This document shows positions 9,824 through 21,388 of a stretch of 32,000 bases of DNA, piece by piece (within the stretch, counting starts at the first letter, position 1; each line of letters starts with the position of its first letter). A program made the translations under genes and the position numbers. The DNA is from Nostoc sp. PCC 7120 = FACHB-418 (GTDB lineage: Bacteria; Cyanobacteriota; Cyanobacteriia; Cyanobacteriales; Nostocaceae): positions 2,430,001-2,462,000 of the forward strand of contig NC_003272.1 of NCBI RefSeq assembly GCF_000009705.1. The letters run 5' to 3'. The notes under the pieces are model-generated. The model made no database searches. It saw nothing but the letters and a program-made list of their open reading frames with translations, and was not told the origin of the DNA.

Positions 9824-10363
9824 TCATAGCCTAATTATAAAACTATCCCTGATGTGAAAGTCAGCTTCTTTACCTGGATGAACTAAAGCCCAGTAAGTTA
9901 TCTTGCCATCTTTTTGTTTGATAACTGTAGTAATTGCGACATCAATAAGTTGTTCAGGAGAAATAATTCTTTCTAAATCGACATTCAATGACATTTCCAA
10001 ACTATCTGAGTAATTTTCAATACTAAAAGGTAGTGCAGTAAAAGCTGTTTCTTCCTGCATTCCTTGGCGATATCCATGAAAGCGGTATATATTCCAATTT
10101 CGAGAGGGAGAGAGGTTGAATTCCCAATACTGTTGAGAATCTTTAATACCAATAAAGAACTCAAAACAAGTATCTTGCCATAGTTCATGTTTTCTTGTTG
10201 GTATGTCTACAGACGAAGGAATCTCAACTGGTGCTAATTCACCAACAACCTGATAATTAATAGTGAGTTGATTATTATGGCGGCTAATATTACCAGCAAT
10301 TTTGAGATCAACTAAAGATTCCTCCGAGGGGAATGGTTGTAGAGAAAATATCTGGTGACTCAT
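9824..10363 (-). CDS. DOMON-like / CBM9-like small beta-sandwich protein (tentative)
   Basis: 179-aa ORF. Its start overlaps the upstream kinase stop by 4 nt (ATGA). The motif region HELWQDTCFEFFIG...YWEFNLSPSRNWNIYRFHGYR resembles the cyanobacterial DOMON-like family, recognised from memory rather than by search. Confidence 0.5.
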   Translation of the reverse strand: MSHQIFSLQPFPSEESLVDLKIAGNISRHNNQLTINYQVVGELAPVEIPSSVDIPTRKHELWQDTCFEFFIGIKDSQQYWEFNLSPSRNWNIYRFHGYRQGMQEETAFTALPFSIENYSDSLEMSLNVDLERIISPEQLIDVAITTVIKQKDGKITYWALVHPGKEADFHIRDSFIIRL

Positions 10364-11478
10364 TTTATATCTTGAATAATTTTACGAATCTTGACTTCTT
10401 GAGATTCGATACTTTCTGTCAGTTTAAATTGCACAAGCGCCCTGGCTAAATTATGTTCTGGGTACTTGATTTTAAAGTAAACATTCCCCCCTAAGTAGTC
10501 AGCAAAGAATCTCAGTCCTAACTCAAAGGCGATGAGGCGTATAGCATCATACATATATGCGTAATCGTTATCGGTGAGAAATTCCTTTGCTACCGACAGA
10601 TAACCTTGTAAAATTCCTTGACATAAATCAGTGTCAAAAGCAACGCTTTCCCAATGTTCTGTTTCTTCCCCAGCAGGGTTACAGCCCGATCGCAAACAAT
10701 CACCAATGTCATAATGTACTAGACCGGGTTTAACCGTGTCGAGGTCGATAACGCTGACGGCTTTGTGAGTAAAAGTATCAAACATAATATTGTTAATTTT
10801 AGGATCGCCGTGCATGAGACGTAACGGCAACTCACCCGCAGCTTTAGCATTTTCTAGGATACAGGCATAACTTTGGCGATCGCTCACAAATTGCAAGCAA
10901 TAATCTAATTCTGGGGATGGTTGCGGTTTAGCTGTTGCCAAAACCTGTTCATAGTGACGCAAGTAAAGCGGCGTAATATGGAATCCTGGCAAAGTATCAG
11001 CCAGTTTTTCTGGTGATAAGTCGCTGATTAAGTTGTGAAACATCCCCAAGGCATAGCCGATTTCTTGAGCTTGTGCCAAATCTTGCATGGTGTCGAAAGA
11101 TTGCGACCCAGAAATAAAGCTAATCGCTCGCCAGAAATTCCCTTGAGTATCTGTGCAGTAATCGTGATTATCTTTGGTGGAAAGTACGCGCGGAACTTCC
11201 CAACGACGGTTCGGGGGGGCGTATTGTAGACGTTGATGAACATGATCACTAAAGATACGCATATTCTGCATGATCAGTTCAGGTTGACGAAACACTTGAG
11301 TGTTTATCCGTTGCAGAACAAAATGCTGTGCTTCTAAGGAATCAACAGTTACTAAAAAAGTATCGTTAATATTGCCACTACCAAAGGCTTGAACATTTGT
11401 TACTGTACCTGGAAACTTGAATTTCCCGGCAATGGCAGCTAAATCTACTACAGACTGCGTGCTGATAACTTCTGTCAT
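10360..11478 (-). CDS. APH/protein-kinase-fold phosphotransferase (NahK-like sugar or small-molecule kinase)
   Basis: The catalytic-loop motif LMHGDPKINNIMFD is followed by VIDLDTVKPGLVHYDIGD (the DxD metal-binding segment of the aminoglycoside/choline-kinase fold). Length is 372 aa. Confidence 0.75.
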   Translation of the reverse strand: MTEVISTQSVVDLAAIAGKFKFPGTVTNVQAFGSGNINDTFLVTVDSLEAQHFVLQRINTQVFRQPELIMQNMRIFSDHVHQRLQYAPPNRRWEVPRVLSTKDNHDYCTDTQGNFWRAISFISGSQSFDTMQDLAQAQEIGYALGMFHNLISDLSPEKLADTLPGFHITPLYLRHYEQVLATAKPQPSPELDYCLQFVSDRQSYACILENAKAAGELPLRLMHGDPKINNIMFDTFTHKAVSVIDLDTVKPGLVHYDIGDCLRSGCNPAGEETEHWESVAFDTDLCQGILQGYLSVAKEFLTDNDYAYMYDAIRLIAFELGLRFFADYLGGNVYFKIKYPEHNLARALVQFKLTESIESQEVKIRKIIQDIK

Positions 11479-11865: not shown

Positions 11866-12436
11866 ATGTGATTGCTATACTTGCGATCGCTTCATCAATA
11901 ATTCTGATTCATTCCATAGATAGATTTAGCAAAACCCATCGGCAGAAAGTTTTTACACTTAGAAGCTTAGTATAAAATTTTTCTTAAGATATTTGCTTGA
12001 TGGAGGCGATCGCCTAATCTAAGTCTTGACTCGTCTCATCATGAATTGTGCTGATTATTGGACTATATAATAATCATTAACGATTTTGGAATGAGTAGAT
12101 TTACCACCAATAAAATATGCAAAATAAAAAATGTTAATTTCTTGCTAAACATTGATGATAATGGATCACAGGATGTATGCTTCATGCCATAGTACATTAT
12201 TAAGCCAAAATTTATAATCTAAATTTTATTTTTTATATTGTTATGATTACGTAGACATAAGGCATTTAATATAGGAAATATTTCTAAGAAAATTTTAAGC
12301 ATATTTATAAATATTATTTAAACTTACGCAAATCCACTGAACACTATAGAGACGTGACATTCCTAAATTGTCTAGTTAATATATAACTTGATATATCACT
12401 TATTACATTCCTCCAGTTAATGGGTTAGGAAGTCGA

Positions 12437-12679
12437 ATGTCTCGCCAAAAGAAAATAATATTTGCACAACCAAAAATCGGTCAATTCATTCAAGAAATTA
12501 GGCTGGTTATGGGTTTAACCCAAGAAGAGTTTGCGGTAATTCTTGGTGTAACTTTTCCTACTGTAAATCGTTGGGAAAATGGGCATACTAAACCTTCAAA
12601 ACTCGCTATTCAACAAATAGAAGCTTTGGTAGATAAGCTTGGTGAAGATGGTCAAAATATTTTGGCTAAATATCACTGA
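12437..12679 (+). CDS. XRE-family helix-turn-helix transcriptional regulator (80 aa)
   Basis: IQEIRLVMGLTQEEFAVILGVTFPTVNRWENGHTKPS is a classic Cro/C1-type HTH_3 pattern. GGAAG sits 6-10 nt upstream of the ATG. Confidence 0.85.
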   Translation: MSRQKKIIFAQPKIGQFIQEIRLVMGLTQEEFAVILGVTFPTVNRWENGHTKPSKLAIQQIEALVDKLGEDGQNILAKYH

Positions 12680-12744: not shown

Positions 12745-14571
12745 ATGAATTTTAATTACTTGAGATATTTTTTGAAATTTACTTCAATACCCAGTATTTG
12801 TCTCTTGTTGATATTATCAATTTCTCATTTTTCTAGGGTATTGGCTCAAAATCCCAAAGGTGGAATTGACTGGATTGTAGTAGTAGATACTTCTGCTTCC
12901 ATGCGCGGTGTTGGCGGGACAAGAAATATCTTTACTCAAGTCAAAAATTCTATTAATGAATTTGTTAATACTGCCAGAGTAGGGGATACAGTTACTATTT
13001 ATAATTTCGATAGTGATGTAACTTTGCAAGCTCAAGAAATTCCTATTGCCAGCAATCCAGACCGGGGTAAACTCAAACAAATAATTAATAACCTCAAAGC
13101 TGATGGTGTGCGTACTCACACAGGGAAAGCAGTACAACAAGCGCTCTCTACTTCTGCAAAATTGAATCAACGTCCTAATACTGCGGATAGGACTGTGAGT
13201 ATAGTTTTCCTAACAGATGGATTGGAAGATGTCCAAGGTATTCCTAATCCTGTGCCGATTCCTCAAAGTACGCAACTTTTACGGGAACAAGAATGTAAAC
13301 CTTATGTATTTTTCGTATCTTTAGGATTGAAAGAACACGAAAAACAATTAAATGAATTTGCCAGTAATCCCGCACTTTGTGGCAAAGGGCGCGTTTTGCG
13401 TGACCCTGGAGGAGTGCAATTAAACAAGTTGGCTCAAAATATTAGGCCAAGACTCATTAAACCCCAGATTGATGTTAGTTTATCTACTGTTGATTTGCCG
13501 CCTGTATTGCCAGGTACAACTACAAAAGCACTAAATATTAATAGCATCAGTAATGTCAATGCTAAAGTGAGGTTGCAACTAAAAGACATAGAAAAAAGTG
13601 GTATTCGCCTAGTTTTGCCTAGCACAATTGACTTAGCAGCTAATCAACAAAAAGTTATTCCTATAAGTTTACAAATTCCAGCAAATGCACAGGGAGGTAA
13701 TCGAAAATTGCGGTTTTTGTTAACAGCAACTGATAAAGCTATTGCCCCACAAGCTATTGATTTATCTTTAACGATTAAACCACAATTGTCAATGCAACCA
13801 AATAGCCTAAACTTCGATTCTGTAGAAGCAGGAAAAACTAGCCAAAAGCAAACTTTAGTAATTCGCAGCAATATATCTGGAACAGCTAGTTTACAACTGC
13901 AAGGCAAGACTAAAGATGTTTCTTTAAAGGAGCCTTCAACACCTGTATCTTTGGCAGTCGGAGAAACCAAAATCCCTATACAGCTTGAAGTTGCTGATAG
14001 TAGTTTTGATGGTAAGCGTACATTCAATGTAGTTGTTACTCCAGATCACCCCCTGACGAATCCCCTCAGTGCCGAAGTTCAGGTACGGATCTTAATGCCA
14101 CTGGGACGGAAAATCGTTATTTGGTTGCTATTGATATTACTGCTTTTCTTAATTACCTTAACCATAATTTGCTTGATTCAACGTAAAACTCCTTGGGAAT
14201 TAGCCCAAGATATTGGCACTCGCAACCATTTAGAAGGGGAACTAGAACTATTAGAACCAGTCCCCATATCACCAGAAGAACAATATATTAGCCTTACTCA
14301 CCAGCACAAGCAAAAAGTCAACTTGAGTGCATTAGTTCCAGCGATCGCCTCTACAAATAGTGATGCAGAATTAGTCATCAATTGGCAGTCTGGTAAAAAA
14401 TATGTATATGTACGGAGTTTAAGCGGTATTACTTTTGTCAATAATGAAAAGATAACTACATATCAACTTTACGATGAAGACACAATCCAGGTTGATAACG
14501 TAAAGCTGCGATTTAACTGGATTGGTAATCAACGGCCCTATGAACAAAACAGTGGGCTGACAGATTTTTAA
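12745..14571 (+). CDS. Transmembrane protein: signal peptide - vWA domain with complete MIDAS - beta-rich (Ig-like) repeats - TM helix - C-terminal FHA-like domain
   Basis: Signal-like N-terminus ICLLLILSISHFSRVLA/QNP. MIDAS DTSAS at residues 48-52 (nt 12886-12900), with downstream THTG and FLTDGLED. Two similar beta-rich segments span about residues 240-450. The TM helix is IVIWLLLILLLFLITLTIICLI (nt ~14113-14178). The C-terminal FHA-like strands are YVYVRSLSGITFVNNEKITTYQLYDEDTIQVDNVKLRF. Confidence 0.8.
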   Translation: MNFNYLRYFLKFTSIPSICLLLILSISHFSRVLAQNPKGGIDWIVVVDTSASMRGVGGTRNIFTQVKNSINEFVNTARVGDTVTIYNFDSDVTLQAQEIPIASNPDRGKLKQIINNLKADGVRTHTGKAVQQALSTSAKLNQRPNTADRTVSIVFLTDGLEDVQGIPNPVPIPQSTQLLREQECKPYVFFVSLGLKEHEKQLNEFASNPALCGKGRVLRDPGGVQLNKLAQNIRPRLIKPQIDVSLSTVDLPPVLPGTTTKALNINSISNVNAKVRLQLKDIEKSGIRLVLPSTIDLAANQQKVIPISLQIPANAQGGNRKLRFLLTATDKAIAPQAIDLSLTIKPQLSMQPNSLNFDSVEAGKTSQKQTLVIRSNISGTASLQLQGKTKDVSLKEPSTPVSLAVGETKIPIQLEVADSSFDGKRTFNVVVTPDHPLTNPLSAEVQVRILMPLGRKIVIWLLLILLLFLITLTIICLIQRKTPWELAQDIGTRNHLEGELELLEPVPISPEEQYISLTHQHKQKVNLSALVPAIASTNSDAELVINWQSGKKYVYVRSLSGITFVNNEKITTYQLYDEDTIQVDNVKLRFNWIGNQRPYEQNSGLTDF

Positions 14572-14591: not shown

Positions 14592-17324
14592 ATGTCACGT
14601 CCCACAGTTGTTTTTCGCCCTACTGTTGTCATCGGTTTAGGAGGTACGGGTTATGAAGTTGCACTCAAGTTGAAAAAGCGCTTCATCGATGTTTATGGCG
14701 ACGTACCAGACATTATTCGCTTTCTCTCTATTGATACCACTGAAAATATTCAAAGCCGGGAAAAATCACCTGATGGTACTAAGGTTGTTTTAGAACCTAA
14801 TGAACTTTATGCGATTTCCGTCGCTAATCCATTACCTTTAACGCGGAACGATCATATTGATGAATGGTGGCCGAGAAATATTCCCACATCCAGCTTGATT
14901 AGTGGTGCAGGTCAGATTCGCGCCCGTGGACGGTTGGCTTTCTTTGCAAAAGTAGGCGATATTAACGGTTTAATTAGTCAGGCGATTAATACTGTCCGCG
15001 AAATTCGCAGTAGTAAACAAGCATTCTTAGACAAATTTCAAGTATCTAATCGTGATGGTGTGGAAGTTTTTATTGTTGGTAGTTTAGCTGGAGGAACGGG
15101 TAGCGGTACTTTTCTAGATGTGGCATTTTTAGCCAGACAATATCTTAATAGCTTTTCCAATGTTACGGGATTATTTGTATTACCTAGAGTATTTGCCAAT
15201 CTTCCCCAAACTCATCTAGTAAAATCCAATGCTTATGGCGCTCTCAAAGAAATTGAACACTTTTGGAATTTGTCACCATCTAATCCTTTAGAGATTGATT
15301 ATGGTATTACCAAAGTCAAAGCCGATCGCCCTCCTTTCGATGCAGTATTTTTGATGGATGGTGTGAACAAAAATGGTACTGTAGTTAGCCGTCCTAACGA
15401 CTTACAAAATTTAATCGCCGATGGTTTGTATATTCAAATTGGCTCTCAAATTGGTCTAGATGCTGCCAACGTTGCTGATAATATTCGTGCTTATTTGGCA
15501 GTTGGAGAGAAAGTCCGAGGACGAAATATAAATTATTGTAGTTTTGGCTTTGCTACTTTGGCTTTGCCAGTACAGCAGTACGAGCGAATGAAACTAGAAG
15601 ACACGCAGAACTTATTGAAAAACGAGTTGATGGCTGCTACTGCAAATATTGATATAGCCAGCGAAATTGAGCGTTTTTTACAAGATTGCAAATTAGCAGA
15701 AGCTACTACCGTATTAGATAGTTTGACAGAGAGCGATCGCGGTGGACAAGTCAAACCAGAATTCAGAATCGGGGAAATGAAATATGACCGCGCATCTTTA
15801 CCGACTATCAAAGAACTTTACAAGCGACAGTTGGATCAAATGGAGCAAAGGACGGCTAAAGATTTGGCGATGAATTTTTATCGCTTAGAACAGACTGCAA
15901 CTACTACTATTGAGGCTTGGTTGGAGCGTAGTCTGAATCGTCCCAATGGTCTAGCTTCTACTCTAAAATTCGTGAGTAGTCTTTATCAAAAGATAGATGA
16001 GTTACAGCAGAATGTACAGCGCAAATCTAAAGAAGCTCAATCTAATTTTTCCACTTTAAAATTAGAACCCCAAGAAGAAAAAATTAAAGAAGCCGCCGAA
16101 GCTTGGTTTCCCAATAAGAATACTATTCAAGCAGCTTGTCAGAGATATAAAGAACGGGCTGACCAAAAGTGGCGGATATACTTACACTGGAAACGCTGTG
16201 ATAAGGCGGCGGAACTCTGCGGTATGCTGCGGACTAGAATAGAAAAAATTCAGGAACAATGTCAACGCATACACAGCAACCTAGATAAAGTTTATCGAGA
16301 TGTAGAACAAAGTTACGCCGAAGTTAGCCGCCAAGGAAATTCTGATAATCCGTTTATCCATACTATTCAACGCGTTGATTTAGAATCGAAACGCCCCAAA
16401 GTTAGTGGTGAAGACTTTATCCGTTGGTATCGAGAAAAGTCTCAAAGTTTAACTAATTGGTCTGAGAAAAAGGCAGAAGATGTGAAAGATGAAATCTTAG
16501 CCTTTATGGATGAAACTTATCGTCCACTCACTAGTATGAATATTGAGCAAGTATTAGCAGATAGTAACCCAGAAGATGCGGGAGAGGATTTACAGCAACT
16601 TGGTAAACTTGCAGTTCCTTTGTGGCAATATCAAGATTCCGAAATTCCTGCTAAACAGCAACACGTCATTACAGAATTTTATTACTACGGAGTCGAAAGT
16701 AACAACACTATTTTTAGTAATCCCCCGCTTTCTAATCGTCTACCTAAAGGCAAAGGTAATGTTTCTTTTGTACCAACAGGTGAACCTCATAAACTCACAC
16801 TGTTTCGTATAGAAATAGGTGTACCTTTGTTTACTCTGAATGGGATGAAAGATATGGAGATGGCTTATCTAGATCCAGATAAGGTCTTCAAACATTTGCA
16901 CCGTAATTGGACGAATTTAGCAAATTTAATTCCTCCAGAAGATGACGGCGGAGCGCTGCGTTGGTTTGCTTTAGCTTTAGCACCTAATCCATATTCATTA
17001 ATTGTCAATGAGAGGAAGCAATATTTTGTCCATACAGACCAAGCAAGAAAATTAGAAGGTGGAACTTTGTTGTTGGGAGATGACCGCAAATCAGCATTTA
17101 AAGCTTTCAAAAACAATGTTTCTTTAGTTAAAGAAATTGCTCAGAAAGTCGATAAAATTACCCACCAAGACAAAGAAAAAGCGAGATTTTCTCTAGAGAG
17201 CTATATTAAGCAAGTTAATGAGCTTTTAAAGAATAATAGAGTCGGTCTGCCAATCAAAGAACAGGTGGAAATGGAAATTCAAGAAATTGATGCCTATTTA
17301 GAAGATTTGGATGTGATTAGCTAA
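14592..17324 (+). CDS. Large tubulin/FtsZ-superfamily GTPase ('tubulin-like', Tubulin_2-type) with a helical C-terminal extension
   Basis: T1-like loop VVIGLGGTGYEV (G15-G20, nt 14634-14651). Tubulin signature T4 loop IVGSLAGGTGSGTFLDVA (GGTGSG = residues 167-172, nt 15090-15107). A GAGG-containing RBS lies 9 nt upstream, and the gene starts 20 bp after the vWA gene. At 910 aa it is far longer than FtsZ or TubZ. Confidence 0.8.
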   Translation: MSRPTVVFRPTVVIGLGGTGYEVALKLKKRFIDVYGDVPDIIRFLSIDTTENIQSREKSPDGTKVVLEPNELYAISVANPLPLTRNDHIDEWWPRNIPTSSLISGAGQIRARGRLAFFAKVGDINGLISQAINTVREIRSSKQAFLDKFQVSNRDGVEVFIVGSLAGGTGSGTFLDVAFLARQYLNSFSNVTGLFVLPRVFANLPQTHLVKSNAYGALKEIEHFWNLSPSNPLEIDYGITKVKADRPPFDAVFLMDGVNKNGTVVSRPNDLQNLIADGLYIQIGSQIGLDAANVADNIRAYLAVGEKVRGRNINYCSFGFATLALPVQQYERMKLEDTQNLLKNELMAATANIDIASEIERFLQDCKLAEATTVLDSLTESDRGGQVKPEFRIGEMKYDRASLPTIKELYKRQLDQMEQRTAKDLAMNFYRLEQTATTTIEAWLERSLNRPNGLASTLKFVSSLYQKIDELQQNVQRKSKEAQSNFSTLKLEPQEEKIKEAAEAWFPNKNTIQAACQRYKERADQKWRIYLHWKRCDKAAELCGMLRTRIEKIQEQCQRIHSNLDKVYRDVEQSYAEVSRQGNSDNPFIHTIQRVDLESKRPKVSGEDFIRWYREKSQSLTNWSEKKAEDVKDEILAFMDETYRPLTSMNIEQVLADSNPEDAGEDLQQLGKLAVPLWQYQDSEIPAKQQHVITEFYYYGVESNNTIFSNPPLSNRLPKGKGNVSFVPTGEPHKLTLFRIEIGVPLFTLNGMKDMEMAYLDPDKVFKHLHRNWTNLANLIPPEDDGGALRWFALALAPNPYSLIVNERKQYFVHTDQARKLEGGTLLLGDDRKSAFKAFKNNVSLVKEIAQKVDKITHQDKEKARFSLESYIKQVNELLKNNRVGLPIKEQVEMEIQEIDAYLEDLDVIS

Positions 17325-17410: not shown

Positions 17411-20400
17411 ATGCCAAAACCAACTATCTTACTTGCACTCGATCCTCACAGTACGGCTTTATGTGCAGCTATCAAGCGGCAACTCCCACAACTTCCTAAC
17501 CCCCAAAGTCGCTTAATTCAGGCTTACACTCTGACTTGGGACGGTCAAACTTTTGGGTTTAGTAATGAGTTAGATTCTTTTGCCGATGCGAGTTTTGACC
17601 TCACACTCACCAACCCTAGACAAACTGCTGTCTCCCAACTGCGTCACCAGTTTAAAGAAGGGGCTAAAGACCTGCAAACTACCTTAATTGATTTAATTAA
17701 ATCAGTTAACCAATCTCCAGAAGCGATCGCCGCGAAAAATGCTGGAGTTGATATCAGTTCTTGGTATAGAATCTATATCATGTTCTCAGCCAACGACCAT
17801 CGGGCGCGAGAACTGGTATTTGAACTATCCCGCTTGATTCATTGGCTATTTAATGTCTACTTTGCTGACGTTCCCCATAGTTTGGAAGCTTTATTACTCT
17901 TACCAGGATTATTTGCTCAAGCCAGAACTGAGGATTATAGTGCGGCTTATCAACTCCTGAAGGAATTAGACGACAAAATGACTAAAGGAGTTGTCATTAG
18001 GGGTACTCAAAAAAGACCTCCTTTTGATAATTGTTGGCTGATTGACGAACGAATTGGGGAACTAGGAGTCAATTTAGATAGTTATGCTGATGCTTTTGCA
18101 GGTTTCTTGACTGTCGAACCGGAGACAGGTGGATTGTTGATTGGGGCGCATACAATCCGGGGAAAACTTCCTGCTTACAGTACCTTTGGCTATGGGGAGT
18201 TATTTTTTCCTGCACAGACAGTTGTAGATCGTTTGAGTACAGCGTTAGCAGCCGATATTATCACCCAGGAGTTTCTCCCCTCAGCAAAACTCACTCCTGA
18301 AGCAAATCGCCAATTACTATTAGATGCTAAAGAATTTGTCCTCAGCGAAGATTATAACGATGCTTTGCAGCAATTAGAACGAGACAACGGTAAACCAGTT
18401 TGGCAAGATTTCAGCCCCCGTCTTGATATTCGTCCCGGCCAGACACAAGAATATGGGATGGAATTGCAATGTGCTTATAAGCAATTTGAAAATAAAGAAC
18501 TGATTTCATCTAAGCGCACTCTAGAAATTTGTGGTAAACAAGCACAAGCCACCTTAACCAAACTCTTAGACCAGAAGATTAATCAATATGCGGATGCTGC
18601 AACTAGTGGCTTACATGAAGCTGTTAGATTATCTACTGTTTTGAATAATCCTTATTTGGAATTGCAAACAGAGTCTATTAGCGATCACCCAGAAAATCTG
18701 ATTACAGAACTACGCGCCGCCGAATCATTTTTAGATACTCGGTTGCAGATCACAATCAACAAAGAAAATAGTCAAAAGCTACTCAATCAATTCTTCACAC
18801 TCAAATCCCAAAGACAACAATTACAAGACACGATAGCTGAGACTAATTCGGAAGCACTCACCCAAGAGTTACAGAAAATTCAAGAACAATTAAAAGTAGC
18901 TGTTTCCGACTATCACCAAGCTATAAATGCAGAACTCGAACAAACTAGACAAACCCGCTTATTAGCAATTGAAGATGCTCGTTCCAAGGCACAAACAGCG
19001 ATTAGTCAGGCACAAAAACAGTTAAATTATTTAGAAAATCAACATGAAATAGCTACAGATCAATTAAATGAATTGATAGCAGAAGAAAACCGTTTTCGTT
19101 CTCTATATCTCATAGTTTTTCCTGCTGTCGTTGCTATTGCCTTAATTGGGATTTTGCTGCTCACCGGGCTTTTCAGCCAATCAACCCTTTGGATATTATT
19201 ACAACAGATAGGGGTCAACTTATTGAATTACATACTTTGGGGTTTAGTTAGTGTACTCAGTTACTTAGGTATAGTTTGGCTGAAGTACAGTACCAGTATC
19301 CGCGATCGCATTCAAAAAGTTCAGAAGCAAATCAAACGCCTAGAAAGTAGTTTAAAAGCTACTGGTGTGGAATTACGCCGTAATTATAATGACCAATTAA
19401 AGTTAGAATATGACCTCTATGCTCAAAATATCCGCGTTGAAGTAGCGAATCATTTGATTAAAACATCTAAACAAAAGACTGAGATTTTACGGCAAAGTTT
19501 ATCTAATTTTTCTCAAATATATGATATTTTAATTGCTCAACATGATAAAGCCTCGACAAATTATTCGGAAACTAGATTAGCTATTTTAACAAACTCAGAT
19601 ATCGATATTTATTATCATCAAAATATTCTCAAAACTCTACCCATTAATAAATTTACCCAAGAAGAAGTTAGTCGTTCTCAATCATGGCAAATTTCGTCCA
19701 CAGAATTTCAGAACAAACTGGATTTGTTTGCCAGAAAGCAGTTTGAACATTTAAGTAAGTTATCCATTGGAGACGTTTTAAAATCAGATTTGATCGCAGA
19801 AAATACAGCTAGTATTAGATTAAATCAACTTTATAACAGTGCGAAGCTCTTGTTGCGTCTTCAAGATAGTGATGCTCACTTAAACCCAACTTCTCAACCA
19901 GAAATTACACTTTGGGTAGGAGCAAAAGATAAAGAAGAAATACTCCGACTTTATAGTCGCTTTAGCCGTTCTTTAACTCCCTATGTCGCGGAAGACGAAA
20001 GTAGTTTATGCGTTTTGGTACGTTCTTTAGGTTTTCCGATTTACTTTCTCAGTCAAATAGAGTTTTATCGAGACTGTTATGAACGTACTCAGAAAGAACA
20101 AGAGGAAAATATTCCCGACTTAATTCCTGAAGAAATTAGTTCTAGTCGAGAATTAATTTGGGCTTATGATACTCTGTTGCTAGCGATCGCTCTGGAATTA
20201 TTGTCTCAAGACACTCACGGTAACTATCAATTCAATGGTCAATTACTTGGTCAAGAACGAGAAAAAATTGCCTCGGCTCTTGCAAATGAGTTCAGCCATC
20301 AAGAATTATATGGAGAACTCAAAGAACGTATAGAGGCGTTTGAACAAGATTTAATTTACCAGCAATTAGAAAAATCTGAAAAATCTGTCCCAGGTTTAAC

Positions 20401-20458
20401 GCATTACGAACGCAAGCGTTTAAATCATCTATTGTCAAAGTATAGTCCTCTAAACTAG
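17411..20458 (+). CDS. Degenerate (GTP-loop-less) paralog of the upstream tubulin-like protein, with a long coiled coil and a two-helix membrane hairpin
   Basis: It aligns by eye with the 910-aa protein along its whole length. The pairs are ILLALDPHSTALC vs VVIGLGGTGYEVA, IYIMFSANDHRARELVFELSRL vs VFIVGSLAGGTGSGTFLDVAFL, RPPFDNCWLIDE vs RPPFDAVFLMDG, YSTFGYGELFFPAQ vs YCSFGFATLALPVQ, and LCVLVRSLGFPIYFL vs LTLFRIEIGVPLFTL. TM helices are LYLIVFPAVVAIALIGILLLTGLF and NYILWGLVSVLSYLGIVWL (nt ~19103-19285), flanked by Q/E/L-rich heptad-like sequence. Confidence 0.75.
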   Translation: MPKPTILLALDPHSTALCAAIKRQLPQLPNPQSRLIQAYTLTWDGQTFGFSNELDSFADASFDLTLTNPRQTAVSQLRHQFKEGAKDLQTTLIDLIKSVNQSPEAIAAKNAGVDISSWYRIYIMFSANDHRARELVFELSRLIHWLFNVYFADVPHSLEALLLLPGLFAQARTEDYSAAYQLLKELDDKMTKGVVIRGTQKRPPFDNCWLIDERIGELGVNLDSYADAFAGFLTVEPETGGLLIGAHTIRGKLPAYSTFGYGELFFPAQTVVDRLSTALAADIITQEFLPSAKLTPEANRQLLLDAKEFVLSEDYNDALQQLERDNGKPVWQDFSPRLDIRPGQTQEYGMELQCAYKQFENKELISSKRTLEICGKQAQATLTKLLDQKINQYADAATSGLHEAVRLSTVLNNPYLELQTESISDHPENLITELRAAESFLDTRLQITINKENSQKLLNQFFTLKSQRQQLQDTIAETNSEALTQELQKIQEQLKVAVSDYHQAINAELEQTRQTRLLAIEDARSKAQTAISQAQKQLNYLENQHEIATDQLNELIAEENRFRSLYLIVFPAVVAIALIGILLLTGLFSQSTLWILLQQIGVNLLNYILWGLVSVLSYLGIVWLKYSTSIRDRIQKVQKQIKRLESSLKATGVELRRNYNDQLKLEYDLYAQNIRVEVANHLIKTSKQKTEILRQSLSNFSQIYDILIAQHDKASTNYSETRLAILTNSDIDIYYHQNILKTLPINKFTQEEVSRSQSWQISSTEFQNKLDLFARKQFEHLSKLSIGDVLKSDLIAENTASIRLNQLYNSAKLLLRLQDSDAHLNPTSQPEITLWVGAKDKEEILRLYSRFSRSLTPYVAEDESSLCVLVRSLGFPIYFLSQIEFYRDCYERTQKEQEENIPDLIPEEISSSRELIWAYDTLLLAIALELLSQDTHGNYQFNGQLLGQEREKIASALANEFSHQELYGELKERIEAFEQDLIYQQLEKSEKSVPGLTHYERKRLNHLLSKYSPLN

Positions 20459-20561: not shown

Positions 20562-20598
20562 TTGTAGAGAGGTTTAACTTCTCTACAATGGTTTTGTT
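20562..20598 (+). terminator. Candidate rho-independent terminator of the 12437-20458 cluster
   Basis: TTGTAGAGA-(9 nt)-TCTCTACAA is a 9-bp stem followed by TGGTTTTGTT. It lies about 100 bp after the stop at 20458. Confidence 0.5.
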
Positions 20599-20626: not shown

Positions 20627-21388
20627 ATGAAGACCAACACATCAAGTTACAACTCTTGGGTAATTTGTCCCAAGCCAAATCCTGTAGCGGCTTTGCGTTT
20701 ATTTTGCTTTCCTTATGCGGGTGGTAGTTCTTTTATCTTTCGCACTTGGTCAAATTATCTACCTGCATCTGTAGAGGTGTGTGCTATTGAACTTCCTGGG
20801 CGAGGAAGACAAATGCAGTTAGCGCCTTTTCACAAGATGGAACCGCTTGTGGATGCGATCGCCTCCGCTATCTACCCATATTTAGACAAGCCATTCGCCT
20901 TCCTGGGACATAGCATGGGTGGCTTGGTCAGCTTTGAAGTGGCGCGTTTCCTGCACAAACAGTATGATATTCACCCGGTTCACTTGTTTATATCCGGTCG
21001 TCGCCCCCCACACATTCCCGATTTACATCCACCTATTCATAATCTACCCGAACCAGCTTTTATAGAAGAACTACGCCATCTCAACGGTACACCATCGACA
21101 GTATTAGAAAATGCAGAACTAATGCAGCTATTTTTGCCGATTTTACGAGCTGATTTTGCAGTTTTAGAAACTTATATTTATACTCCTGAATTACCTTTAG
21201 AATGTCCCCTTACAGTTTTTGGCGGATTACAAGATTCGGAAGTTAGTTGTGATGAGTTGCAAGCATGGCGAGAGCAGACAAAGGCTGACTTTAACTTACA
21301 TATATTCCCCGGCGACCACTTTTTTCTGCACTCGGCTCAATCTCTTGTACTCGAACAATTGGCTAAATATTTGTCTATGAATGTTTAA
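20627..21388 (+). CDS. Type II (external, editing) thioesterase of the NRPS/PKS-associated family
   Basis: LFCFPYAGGSSFIFRTW, nucleophile elbow GHSMGG and C-terminal FPGDHFFL are hallmarks of the GrsT/TEII alpha/beta-hydrolase family. Length is 253 aa. Confidence 0.85.
   Translation: MKTNTSSYNSWVICPKPNPVAALRLFCFPYAGGSSFIFRTWSNYLPASVEVCAIELPGRGRQMQLAPFHKMEPLVDAIASAIYPYLDKPFAFLGHSMGGLVSFEVARFLHKQYDIHPVHLFISGRRPPHIPDLHPPIHNLPEPAFIEELRHLNGTPSTVLENAELMQLFLPILRADFAVLETYIYTPELPLECPLTVFGGLQDSEVSCDELQAWREQTKADFNLHIFPGDHFFLHSAQSLVLEQLAKYLSMNV

Follow-up and report, generated by a model that had tools for sequence, protein, structure and literature searches.

A degenerate FHA-fold tail in alr2042, a predicted membrane-spanning vWA protein encoded beside two FtsZl1-type proteins in Nostoc sp. 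PCC 7120

The closest described relatives of the locus considered here are the vWA/FtsZl1 operons of Makarova and Koonin (2010, Biol Direct 5:33; PMC2875224), in which the gene for a protein with a von Willebrand factor A (vWA) domain adjoins a co-oriented gene for FtsZl1 (Pfam Tubulin_2), the branch that has diverged most within the FtsZ-tubulin superfamily. The vWA proteins so linked frequently bear a signal peptide or transmembrane (TM) segment along with an intact MIDAS (metal ion-dependent adhesion site), and a role in membrane remodelling or vesicle formation was proposed (PMC2875224). In the PMC open-access and bioRxiv literature we found no experimentally established function for FtsZl1/Tubulin_2 since 2010, and no mention of alr2042, alr2043 or alr2044. 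We analysed a window of 32,000 nucleotides from Nostoc sp. PCC 7120 (contig NC_003272.1, positions 2,430,001 to 2,462,000; window position equals genome coordinate minus 2,430,000), centering on the open reading frame at 12745-14571, which is alr2042, a protein of 608 residues. The open reading frames at 12437-12679, 12745-14571, 14592-17324 and 17411-20458 correspond to asr2041, alr2042, alr2043 and alr2044, with coordinates, lengths and order identical to those in Additional file 5 of PMC2875224, where alr2042 is listed at 2442745..2444571. In both that account and ours the vWA gene adjoins the co-oriented FtsZl1 gene. However, alr2042 was annotated there as a COG2304 vWA protein only and alr2044 as 'coiled-coil' only; the FHA-fold tail, its degenerate pocket, the three-gene subtype and the pseudo-GTPase nature of alr2044 were not described. 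The operon including this locus was already on record, as were phospho-independent FHA domains and vWA-FHA partnerships in general. New here are a previously unannotated, family-wide degenerate FHA domain on the predicted cytoplasmic side of a bitopic vWA protein, a conserved three-gene subtype spanning two phyla, and the recognition of alr2044 as a predicted inactive paralogue of FtsZl1.

The full-length AlphaFold2 (AF2) model of alr2042 (12745..14571, + strand; mean predicted local distance difference test score, pLDDT, 85.9) comprises a low-confidence N-terminal helix, an alpha/beta domain (residues 41-237), a pair of all-beta domains (242-344 and 348-450), a long helix (453-479), a much shorter one (483-493) and a terminal beta-sandwich (499-591). 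A preliminary description of this DNA, made from the letters alone, had taken the last region for a divergent FHA-type domain, and our results bear this out. We predict a degenerate FHA-fold domain, a beta-sandwich of about 11 strands in the FHA topology, at residues 496-591 (14230..14517, + strand), preceded by the juxtamembrane helix of residues 483-493; its landmarks are SDAEL (residues 539-543), TFVNNEKI (563-570) and LYDEDTIQVDNVKLRF (575-590). AF2 prediction of the isolated tail yielded a pLDDT of 83.1 and a predicted template modelling score of 0.75, and the two models, built from different alignments of the tail and of the full-length protein, share the same strand pattern at pLDDT 82-97. 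A Foldseek search of the PDB with the tail model recovered only FHA domains among its top 50 matches (probability 0.97-1.00; best target-normalised TM-scores 0.6-0.68), including those of Ki67, GarA, OdhI, Rv0020c, EmbR, MDC1, DgcB and CT664.

Sequence searches point the same way with a more graded signal. A Pfam scan of the whole of alr2042 gave no FHA match at E<=1; run on the isolated tail, the Pfam FHA model (PF00498) scored 16.9 bits (E=0.0086), below its cutoff of 20.7 bits, and aligned only over model positions 24-66, its second half. Just one of 31 family members reached E<0.1 with this model. Against PDB sequences, single-sequence and Nostocales-only profiles produced marginal FHA matches (E 0.05-0.7) mixed with spurious hits to HisF, and a 31-sequence family profile placed FHA domains at all of ranks 1-10 (best E=0.0038). 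Comparison of the family with six canonical FHA domains by hhalign was likewise positive (96% probability, E=4e-9), with the aligned part limited to strands beta6-beta11. The Pfam Yop-YscD_cpl model did not match the tail. Taken together, the predicted structures and profile comparisons make the assignment of the FHA fold to the alr2042 tail a sound one, and indicate that the half of the domain which normally holds the Gly-Arg and SxxH elements has diverged past recognition by sequence. When 15 Nostocales tails were combined into a profile and 1.84 billion representative proteins were screened with it, 52 proteins emerged, with E<=1e-10 for 40. Their full-length tail-bearing representatives are 380-610 residues long, and all combine a hydrophobic N-terminus, a DxSxS motif, a TM segment about 130 residues from the end and the tail. 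In current annotation Pfam assigns VWA only to all 120 of the 120 listed homologues. The same profile also retrieved two ordinary FHA proteins with intact GR, SxxH and NGT elements (E=7e-7 and 1.6e-4); as clues to the cassette these (P0164 and P0171) proved uninformative, one adjoining a Ser/Thr kinase gene and the other lying on a contig of 1.9 kb.

The canonical phosphothreonine pocket of FHA domains comprises a Gly-Arg pair in the beta3-beta4 loop, a Ser and a His in the beta4-beta5 loop and an Asn in the beta6-beta7 loop. We mapped these positions by combining the strand pattern of the AF2 model with an anchored C-terminal alignment, and counted conservation in 43 relatives. In alr2042 the Gly-Arg pair corresponds to S528-A529, within a conserved LS dyad, SxxH to S539-D-A-E542, and the Asn of NGT to S560. 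Across the relatives the Arg-equivalent position holds A in 15, S in 9, E in 6, T in 5, Q in 3, D in 2, and G and R in one each; the Ser-equivalent is S in 24/43; the His-equivalent is E in 27, R in 13 and never H; and the Asn-equivalent is K, S, Q or R, never N. A forced global hhalign alignment placed the pocket in another register (Gly-Arg at Q522-K523, Ser at T537, His at D540), where the conserved Arg, Ser and His are absent as well; over the N-terminal half of the tail this alignment carries no confidence and serves only to indicate that no register restores the pocket. By sequence and model, then, the canonical GR/SxxH/N pocket is lost in alr2042 and throughout the family, as had been suspected from alr2042 alone, and we predict that binding of phosphothreonine peptides was lost with it. 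The further suggestion that SDAEL occupies the pocket-aligned position needs to be qualified: the motif is indeed present at residues 539-543, but its Ser is not a conserved element, the constant part being D-A-[E/R]-L.

What the family does conserve is an L-E-G-E signature in the first strand, P505, L517, the LS dyad, a V-N element and LYDxD-I-x-G. Immediately after the last FHA strand lies a family-specific C-terminal motif, F-N-W-I-G-N-Q-R-P in alr2042 (residues 590-598; 14512..14538, + strand), whose consensus over the 43 relatives is F-N-W-x-G-x-E-R-P (F in 38, N in 28, R in 34 and P in 33). These patterns bear on the question of whether the tail might still read phosphorylation through a non-canonical pocket, with a kinase encoded elsewhere placing the module under Ser/Thr phosphorylation control. 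S528, D540 and G561, which lie on the loops that bind the ligand in canonical domains, are strongly conserved, an Arg stands at the His-equivalent position in about a third of the family (13/43), and FtsZl1 operons of other phyla contain Ser/Thr kinases in eight neighborhoods and canonical FHA proteins in three (PMC2875224). Nevertheless, the Arg of the Gly-Arg pair and the Asn are missing in essentially all 43 members, and the replacements are conserved as acidic residues (D540 and mostly E542) that would repel phosphate; the neutral or acidic character of the conserved loop residues generally argues against phosphate binding. Moreover, as the preliminary description had said of this cluster, no Hanks-type kinase or PP2C phosphatase gene was found in the window, and none occurs among the 10 nearest neighbors of the distant loci, so that neither accompanies the cassette in any lineage examined. 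We accordingly regard a residual phospho-reader as quite improbable.

At the N-terminus of alr2042 a signal-peptide-like segment spans residues 1-35 (12745..12849, + strand; pLDDT low at 31-36), with two basic residues, an 11-residue hydrophobic core at residues 17-27 (Kyte-Doolittle value 2.6) and a VLA|QN sequence predicting cleavage after residue 34. A basic n-region, a hydrophobic core and an A|Q-type site, placed 10-15 residues ahead of the first vWA strand, recur in nearly all relatives. The vWA domain itself occupies residues 41-237 (12865..13455, + strand; alpha/beta model at pLDDT 85-94) and is recognized by Pfam over residues 44-220 (VWA_2 E=3.7e-15; VWA E=1e-13). Its MIDAS is complete, in agreement with the preliminary description: DTSAS at residues 48-52 (12886-12900), THTG at 124-127 (13114-13125) and TDG at 157-159 (13213-13221), with D48, S50, S52, T124 and D158 invariant in an alignment of 26 relatives that share 26-66% identity with alr2042. 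This predicts ligand binding through a divalent cation. The structural matches obtained by Foldseek with the full-length model are proteins that combine a vWA domain with a sandwich, among them ArnB/vWA2, 4FX5, integrin beta3 headpieces, ITIH1 and TEM8 (target-normalised TM-score 0.71).

The vWA domain is followed by two beta-rich segments, whose similarity had been noticed from the letters and amounts to 27% identity over 88 residues (E=2e-5); AF2 models both as beta-sandwiches at pLDDT 83-96. The first Ig-like sandwich, residues 242-344 (13468..13776, + strand), is all-beta in the model and has a weak Pfam match to FixG_C, and the second, residues 348-450 (13786..14094, + strand; pLDDT 93-96), has weak matches to Cadherin-like, Cep192_D4 and choice-of-anchor D. 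The second is found in most relatives, whereas the first is an additional duplicated copy, which Nostocales share with a few further relatives among the cyanobacteria and which most non-Nostocales relatives lack; the latter mostly have a single Ig-like domain, none being present in a few cases (P0126, P0143). Stalk length thus differs by lineage and is perhaps matched to the thickness of the envelope. A single predicted TM helix comes next, at residues 453-479 (14101..14181, + strand), with Kyte-Doolittle values of up to 3.27 and an unbroken helix in the AF2 model; the hydrophobicity peak itself covers residues 457-479 (14113-14181; 3.2-3.3), close to where the helix had been placed by eye, and leaves a tail of 129 residues.

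Since nearly all relatives keep the signal-peptide layout just ahead of the vWA domain, it is highly probable that the vWA and Ig-like part is exported, which would leave the tail in the cytoplasm. The opposite arrangement, with a cytoplasmic vWA domain, a tail on the outside and an N-terminal hydrophobic segment that does not act as a signal, could appeal to the lack of enrichment of positive charge on the tail side of the TM helix and to the existence of cytoplasmic vWA-FHA partners (ArnA-ArnB). Yet it is hard to reconcile with the n-h-c layout and A|Q cleavage-type site of nearly all relatives, with Ig-like stalks whose choice-of-anchor and cadherin-like similarities are typical of exported proteins, and with likely partners that have no signal peptide. 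All FHA domains known to us are, in addition, intracellular. The inverted topology consequently seems very improbable indeed.

The two tubulin-like proteins expected downstream are both present. The first, alr2043 (14592..17324, + strand), starts 20 nucleotides past alr2042 on the same strand and is an FtsZl1/Tubulin_2 GTPase (Pfam Tubulin_2 E=1.9e-63) with a coiled-coil C-terminal region, no TM segment and a predicted cytoplasmic location. Its family keeps the T1 GGTG and T4 GGTGSG loops in all lineages examined, with one GGSG variant (locus L076). The second, alr2044 (17411..20458, + strand), had no match in the Pfam scan, but comparison of family profiles by hhalign revealed homology between the FtsZl1 GTPase domain and the ~300 residues at its N-terminus (97.1%, E=5.4e-11, 190 columns). 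The T1 and T4 loops of alr2044 are replaced by variable non-glycine sequence in every lineage, and a hydrophobic TM hairpin lies at residues ~565-625. On this sequence evidence alr2044 is a membrane-anchored FtsZl1 pseudo-GTPase. The active/inactive pairing of alr2043 and alr2044 recalls heterodimeric tubulins.

To examine gene context we collected 80 loci from species-representative genomes, which were searched with the full-length family alignment, and two more from metagenome and sequencing-run assemblies. Every intact cassette on a sufficiently long contig has the same order, namely the vWA-TM-tail gene, the Tubulin_2 gene and the alr2044-like gene, with the Tubulin_2 gene always directly 3' of the vWA gene. 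The cassette occurs in Nostocales, in Pseudanabaena and Oscillatoriales (where the vWA protein shows 32-34% identity), in Acidobacteriota including Pyrinomonadaceae, and in Thermoanaerobaculia. The only exceptions to this order are deletion remnants in some Nostocales, which lack the FtsZl1 gene and in which what is left of the alr2044 homologue, its C-terminal part, comes directly after the N-terminal part of the vWA gene (L062, 690-7057; L063, 4278-6077; L075, 10001-10657); these imply that the module is dispensable and is sometimes deleted. Genes flanking the cassette in the window are not conserved across the loci, and in distant loci the ten nearest same-strand neighbors are unrelated, encoding among others an HD-GYP-type signalling protein, DUF4126, an AAA ATPase, a nuclease, a nitroreductase, an EPSP synthase and a radical SAM enzyme.

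Such a distribution raises the possibility that the cassette is a biological-conflict system of the defence or abortive-infection type, in which the vWA domain senses an invader or surface perturbation, the tubulin-like proteins then form an NTP-dependent effector or thresholding scaffold, and the tail is the adaptor that passes on the trigger. Kaur et al. (2020, PMC7159879) placed paired tubulin and coiled-coil genes together with an extracellular-vWA TM protein in the GAP1-N2 systems of Firmicutes. The patchy occurrence of the cassette, its deletion remnants in some Nostocales and the XRE-type HTH gene upstream in some loci would fit the same picture, as would a caspase-like Peptidase_C14 gene directly 3' of the cassette on one soil-metagenome contig (L002, 9239-10978, + strand), the sole effector-like neighbor seen, which hints at a conflict or cell-death role in some lineages. 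Against this, no effector gene is conserved beside the cassette; Pfam and NCBIfam scans of the window genes and of ten neighbors in distant loci detected neither the GAP1-N2 TRAFAC GTPase nor the FNIII-repeat domains that define the described systems; and alr2042, alr2043 and alr2044 have no match in PADLOC-DB 2.0 at E<=0.01, where asr2041 gave generic HTH matches only. Furthermore, megablast of the locus against plasmids gave no matches, so the locus is chromosomal, and its flanks are of housekeeping type. A conflict function is therefore possible, if unlikely.

Based on these observations we propose, with a probability of roughly one half, that alr2042 is the membrane-spanning subunit of a self-contained module with alr2043 and alr2044, its pocket-less tail coupling an exported MIDAS head to FtsZl1 assembly. 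With one or two Ig-like domains as its stalk, the MIDAS-vWA head would engage an extracytoplasmic ligand at an acidic residue via a divalent cation, and the single TM helix would join this exported part to the cytoplasmic FHA-fold domain. Devoid of its pocket, the latter may serve as a constitutive, phosphorylation-independent protein interaction module, whose likeliest partner would be the FtsZl1 polymer and/or its membrane-anchored inactive paralogue alr2044. alr2042 could thereby form a physical bridge from an extracytoplasmic binding site to a membrane-located filament or scaffold in the cytoplasm that depends on GTP. What we observed is the architecture of the protein, its folds, a conserved MIDAS, a lost pocket and three strictly linked genes; for the topology, the identity of the partner and the direction in which information flows, the proposal is what we infer. 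Binding of the tail to FtsZl1 or alr2044 is suggested because the three genes are strictly linked, because the tail occurs exclusively with the signal peptide-vWA-TM architecture, and because FtsZl1 is independently associated with canonical FHA proteins and occurs in fusions with Ser/Thr kinases in Planctomycetes, which implies that a functional connection between FHA domains and FtsZl1 exists in its own right. That such binding may be independent of phosphorylation is suggested by the precedent of PrgH, whose pocket-less FHA domain beside a TM helix binds OrgA. The mycobacterial FipA (Rv0019c), a potential precedent for a membrane FHA protein that binds FtsZ, was not relied on, its primary paper being marked RETRACTED.

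Several points weigh against this proposal. The N-terminal half of the tail domain cannot be aligned to FHA domains by sequence, and the pocket was mapped there from the predicted structure. The D540-A541-x-L543 element is kept in 40-41/43 relatives, and S528 (39/43), D540 (41/43) and G561 (42/43) lie on the canonical ligand-binding loops; conservation of these loop residues indicates that the canonical ligand face is still under selection, and the loops may conceivably bind another specific, possibly modified, ligand. The topology is deduced from the signal-peptide pattern, and since Lys and Arg residues are about equally distributed beside the TM helix (three before and two after), the positive-inside rule lends it no independent support. 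The case for binding of the tail to the tubulin-like proteins comes from gene linkage, with which alr2043, alr2044, self-association and an unlinked partner are all compatible. Many Ser/Thr kinases are encoded elsewhere in the Nostoc PCC 7120 genome, so that a cluster free of kinases is weak evidence for phospho-independence.

Another reading is a restricted role, in which the tail makes no contact with the tubulin-like proteins and serves only the homo-oligomerisation, clustering or stability of alr2042. References cited in PMC9907115 document FHA-mediated dimerisation in some eukaryotic proteins as well as surface-mediated non-canonical FHA interactions, and the sequence data single out no partner. 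However, the tail has been found only with the FtsZl1 subfamily and an alr2044-like gene, and the extra conserved FNW-G-ERP motif suggests a specific heterologous ligand, making such a restricted role improbable. With respect to the direction of signalling, the outside-in scheme of the preliminary description is one of three readings of alr2042, alongside inside-out signalling and a static anchor. A rather unlikely but more far-reaching version of the proposed coupling is that the cassette constitutes a bacterial link from an adhesion receptor to the cytoskeleton, with an extracellular MIDAS head on Ig-like legs coupled, mechanically or allosterically and via the phospho-independent FHA tail, to a heteromeric assembly of active FtsZl1 and its membrane-anchored pseudo-GTPase paralogue. 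If this were true, binding of a ligand on the outside would govern GTP-dependent polymerisation within the cell, or vice versa, with local membrane remodelling, vesicle formation or envelope repair as potential outcomes in a multicellular cyanobacterium.

The layout of the locus is compatible with coordinated expression. An XRE-family HTH protein of 80 residues, asr2041 (12437..12679, + strand; Pfam HTH_3 E=2.5e-11; listed in Additional file 5 of PMC2875224), is encoded 65 nucleotides 5' of alr2042, although an HTH gene of this type lies upstream of the cassette only in a subset of Nostocales loci. The gaps between asr2041, alr2042, alr2043 and alr2044 measure 65, 20 and 86 nucleotides, and a terminator-like hairpin with a 12-bp stem and a T-rich tract (20562..20588, + strand) lies about 100 nucleotides past the alr2044 stop, before a thioesterase gene at 20627. 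These gaps and the hairpin are consistent with a single operon from asr2041 to alr2044, whose 3' end is likely at 20562-20588. Upstream of asr2041 we found a FurC (PerR) box (12233..12251, - strand), an exact match to the published box CGTAATCATAACAATATAA for which the chance expectation is 0 matches; it is separated from asr2041 by 186 nucleotides, and FurC binding to the asr2041 promoter box has been reported in vitro (PMC10406281). Should asr2041-alr2044 form a single operon, the cassette may be responsive to peroxide or redox stress. In divergent orientation about 1 kb 5' of asr2041 is an APH-family phosphotransferase gene (10360-11478, - strand; Pfam APH 6.9e-28), which overlaps by 4 nucleotides a 179-residue open reading frame lacking a Pfam match (the pair covering 9824-11478); these two genes are not kept beside the cassette in other genomes.

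The label 'VWA domain-containing protein', under which alr2042 homologues are currently filed, overlooks an entire domain. The alr2042 family would represent a widespread bacterial addition to the short list of FHA domains without phosphothreonine recognition. More generally, the combination of a bitopic vWA protein with a pocket-less FHA domain, an inactive membrane paralogue of FtsZl1 and the joint travel of the three genes turns a vague idea of membrane remodelling into a concrete three-component model with testable interactions. As Nostoc PCC 7120 is genetically tractable, FtsZl1 systems that have long gone unexplained become experimentally approachable.

Among systems outside the vWA/FtsZl1 operons, the closest parallel to the tail is found in PrgH, YscD and MxiG of type III secretion basal bodies, bitopic proteins of the inner membrane in which an FHA fold likewise lies beside the one TM helix. 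The phosphopeptide-binding residues are not conserved in the FHA domain of PrgH, which binds OrgA without phosphorylation (PMC9907115). However, the orientation is reversed in these proteins, with the FHA domain N-terminal and periplasmic ring-building domains C-terminal; they possess no vWA domain, their partner is the secretion sorting platform, and we detected no specific sequence kinship between them and the alr2042 tail. The pairing of an FHA domain with a MIDAS vWA and beta-sandwich is instead shared with ArnA (FHA) and ArnB (vWA) of Sulfolobus, and ArnB and vWA2 rank with the best structural matches to the vWA and sandwich part of alr2042. ArnA-ArnB and the bacterial vWA-Ser/Thr protein kinase-FHA-PP2C systems, of which a 2026 preprint describes a Deinococcus operon of vWA, kinase, FHA and PP2C genes, have a canonical, phospho-dependent FHA domain, keep the FHA and vWA proteins both in the cytoplasm, and include kinases and phosphatases. 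In contrast, alr2042 unites vWA and FHA-like domains in one polypeptide, on what are predicted to be opposite sides of the membrane, with the pocket lost and no linked kinase or phosphatase.

The GAP1-N2 tubulin/vWA conflict systems (Kaur, Burroughs, Iyer and Aravind 2020, PMC7159879) resemble the present locus in combining two tubulin and coiled-coil genes with an extracellular-vWA membrane protein, but differ in their GAP1-N2 GTPase and FNIII repeats, which are absent around alr2042, and no FHA-like tail was described for their vWA proteins. Finally, integrin beta subunits offer a functional analogy only: they too present an extracellular MIDAS vWA-type head on an Ig-like/hybrid stalk, cross the membrane with one TM helix and end in a short tail that links to the cytoskeleton in the cytoplasm. 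Common descent beyond the ubiquitous vWA fold is unsupported, and the tail of alr2042 is a predicted folded FHA domain rather than a carrier of NPxY motifs. Whereas integrins connect to actin via talin, the presumed partner of alr2042 is a member of the tubulin family, and any bidirectional signalling by alr2042 would be hypothetical.

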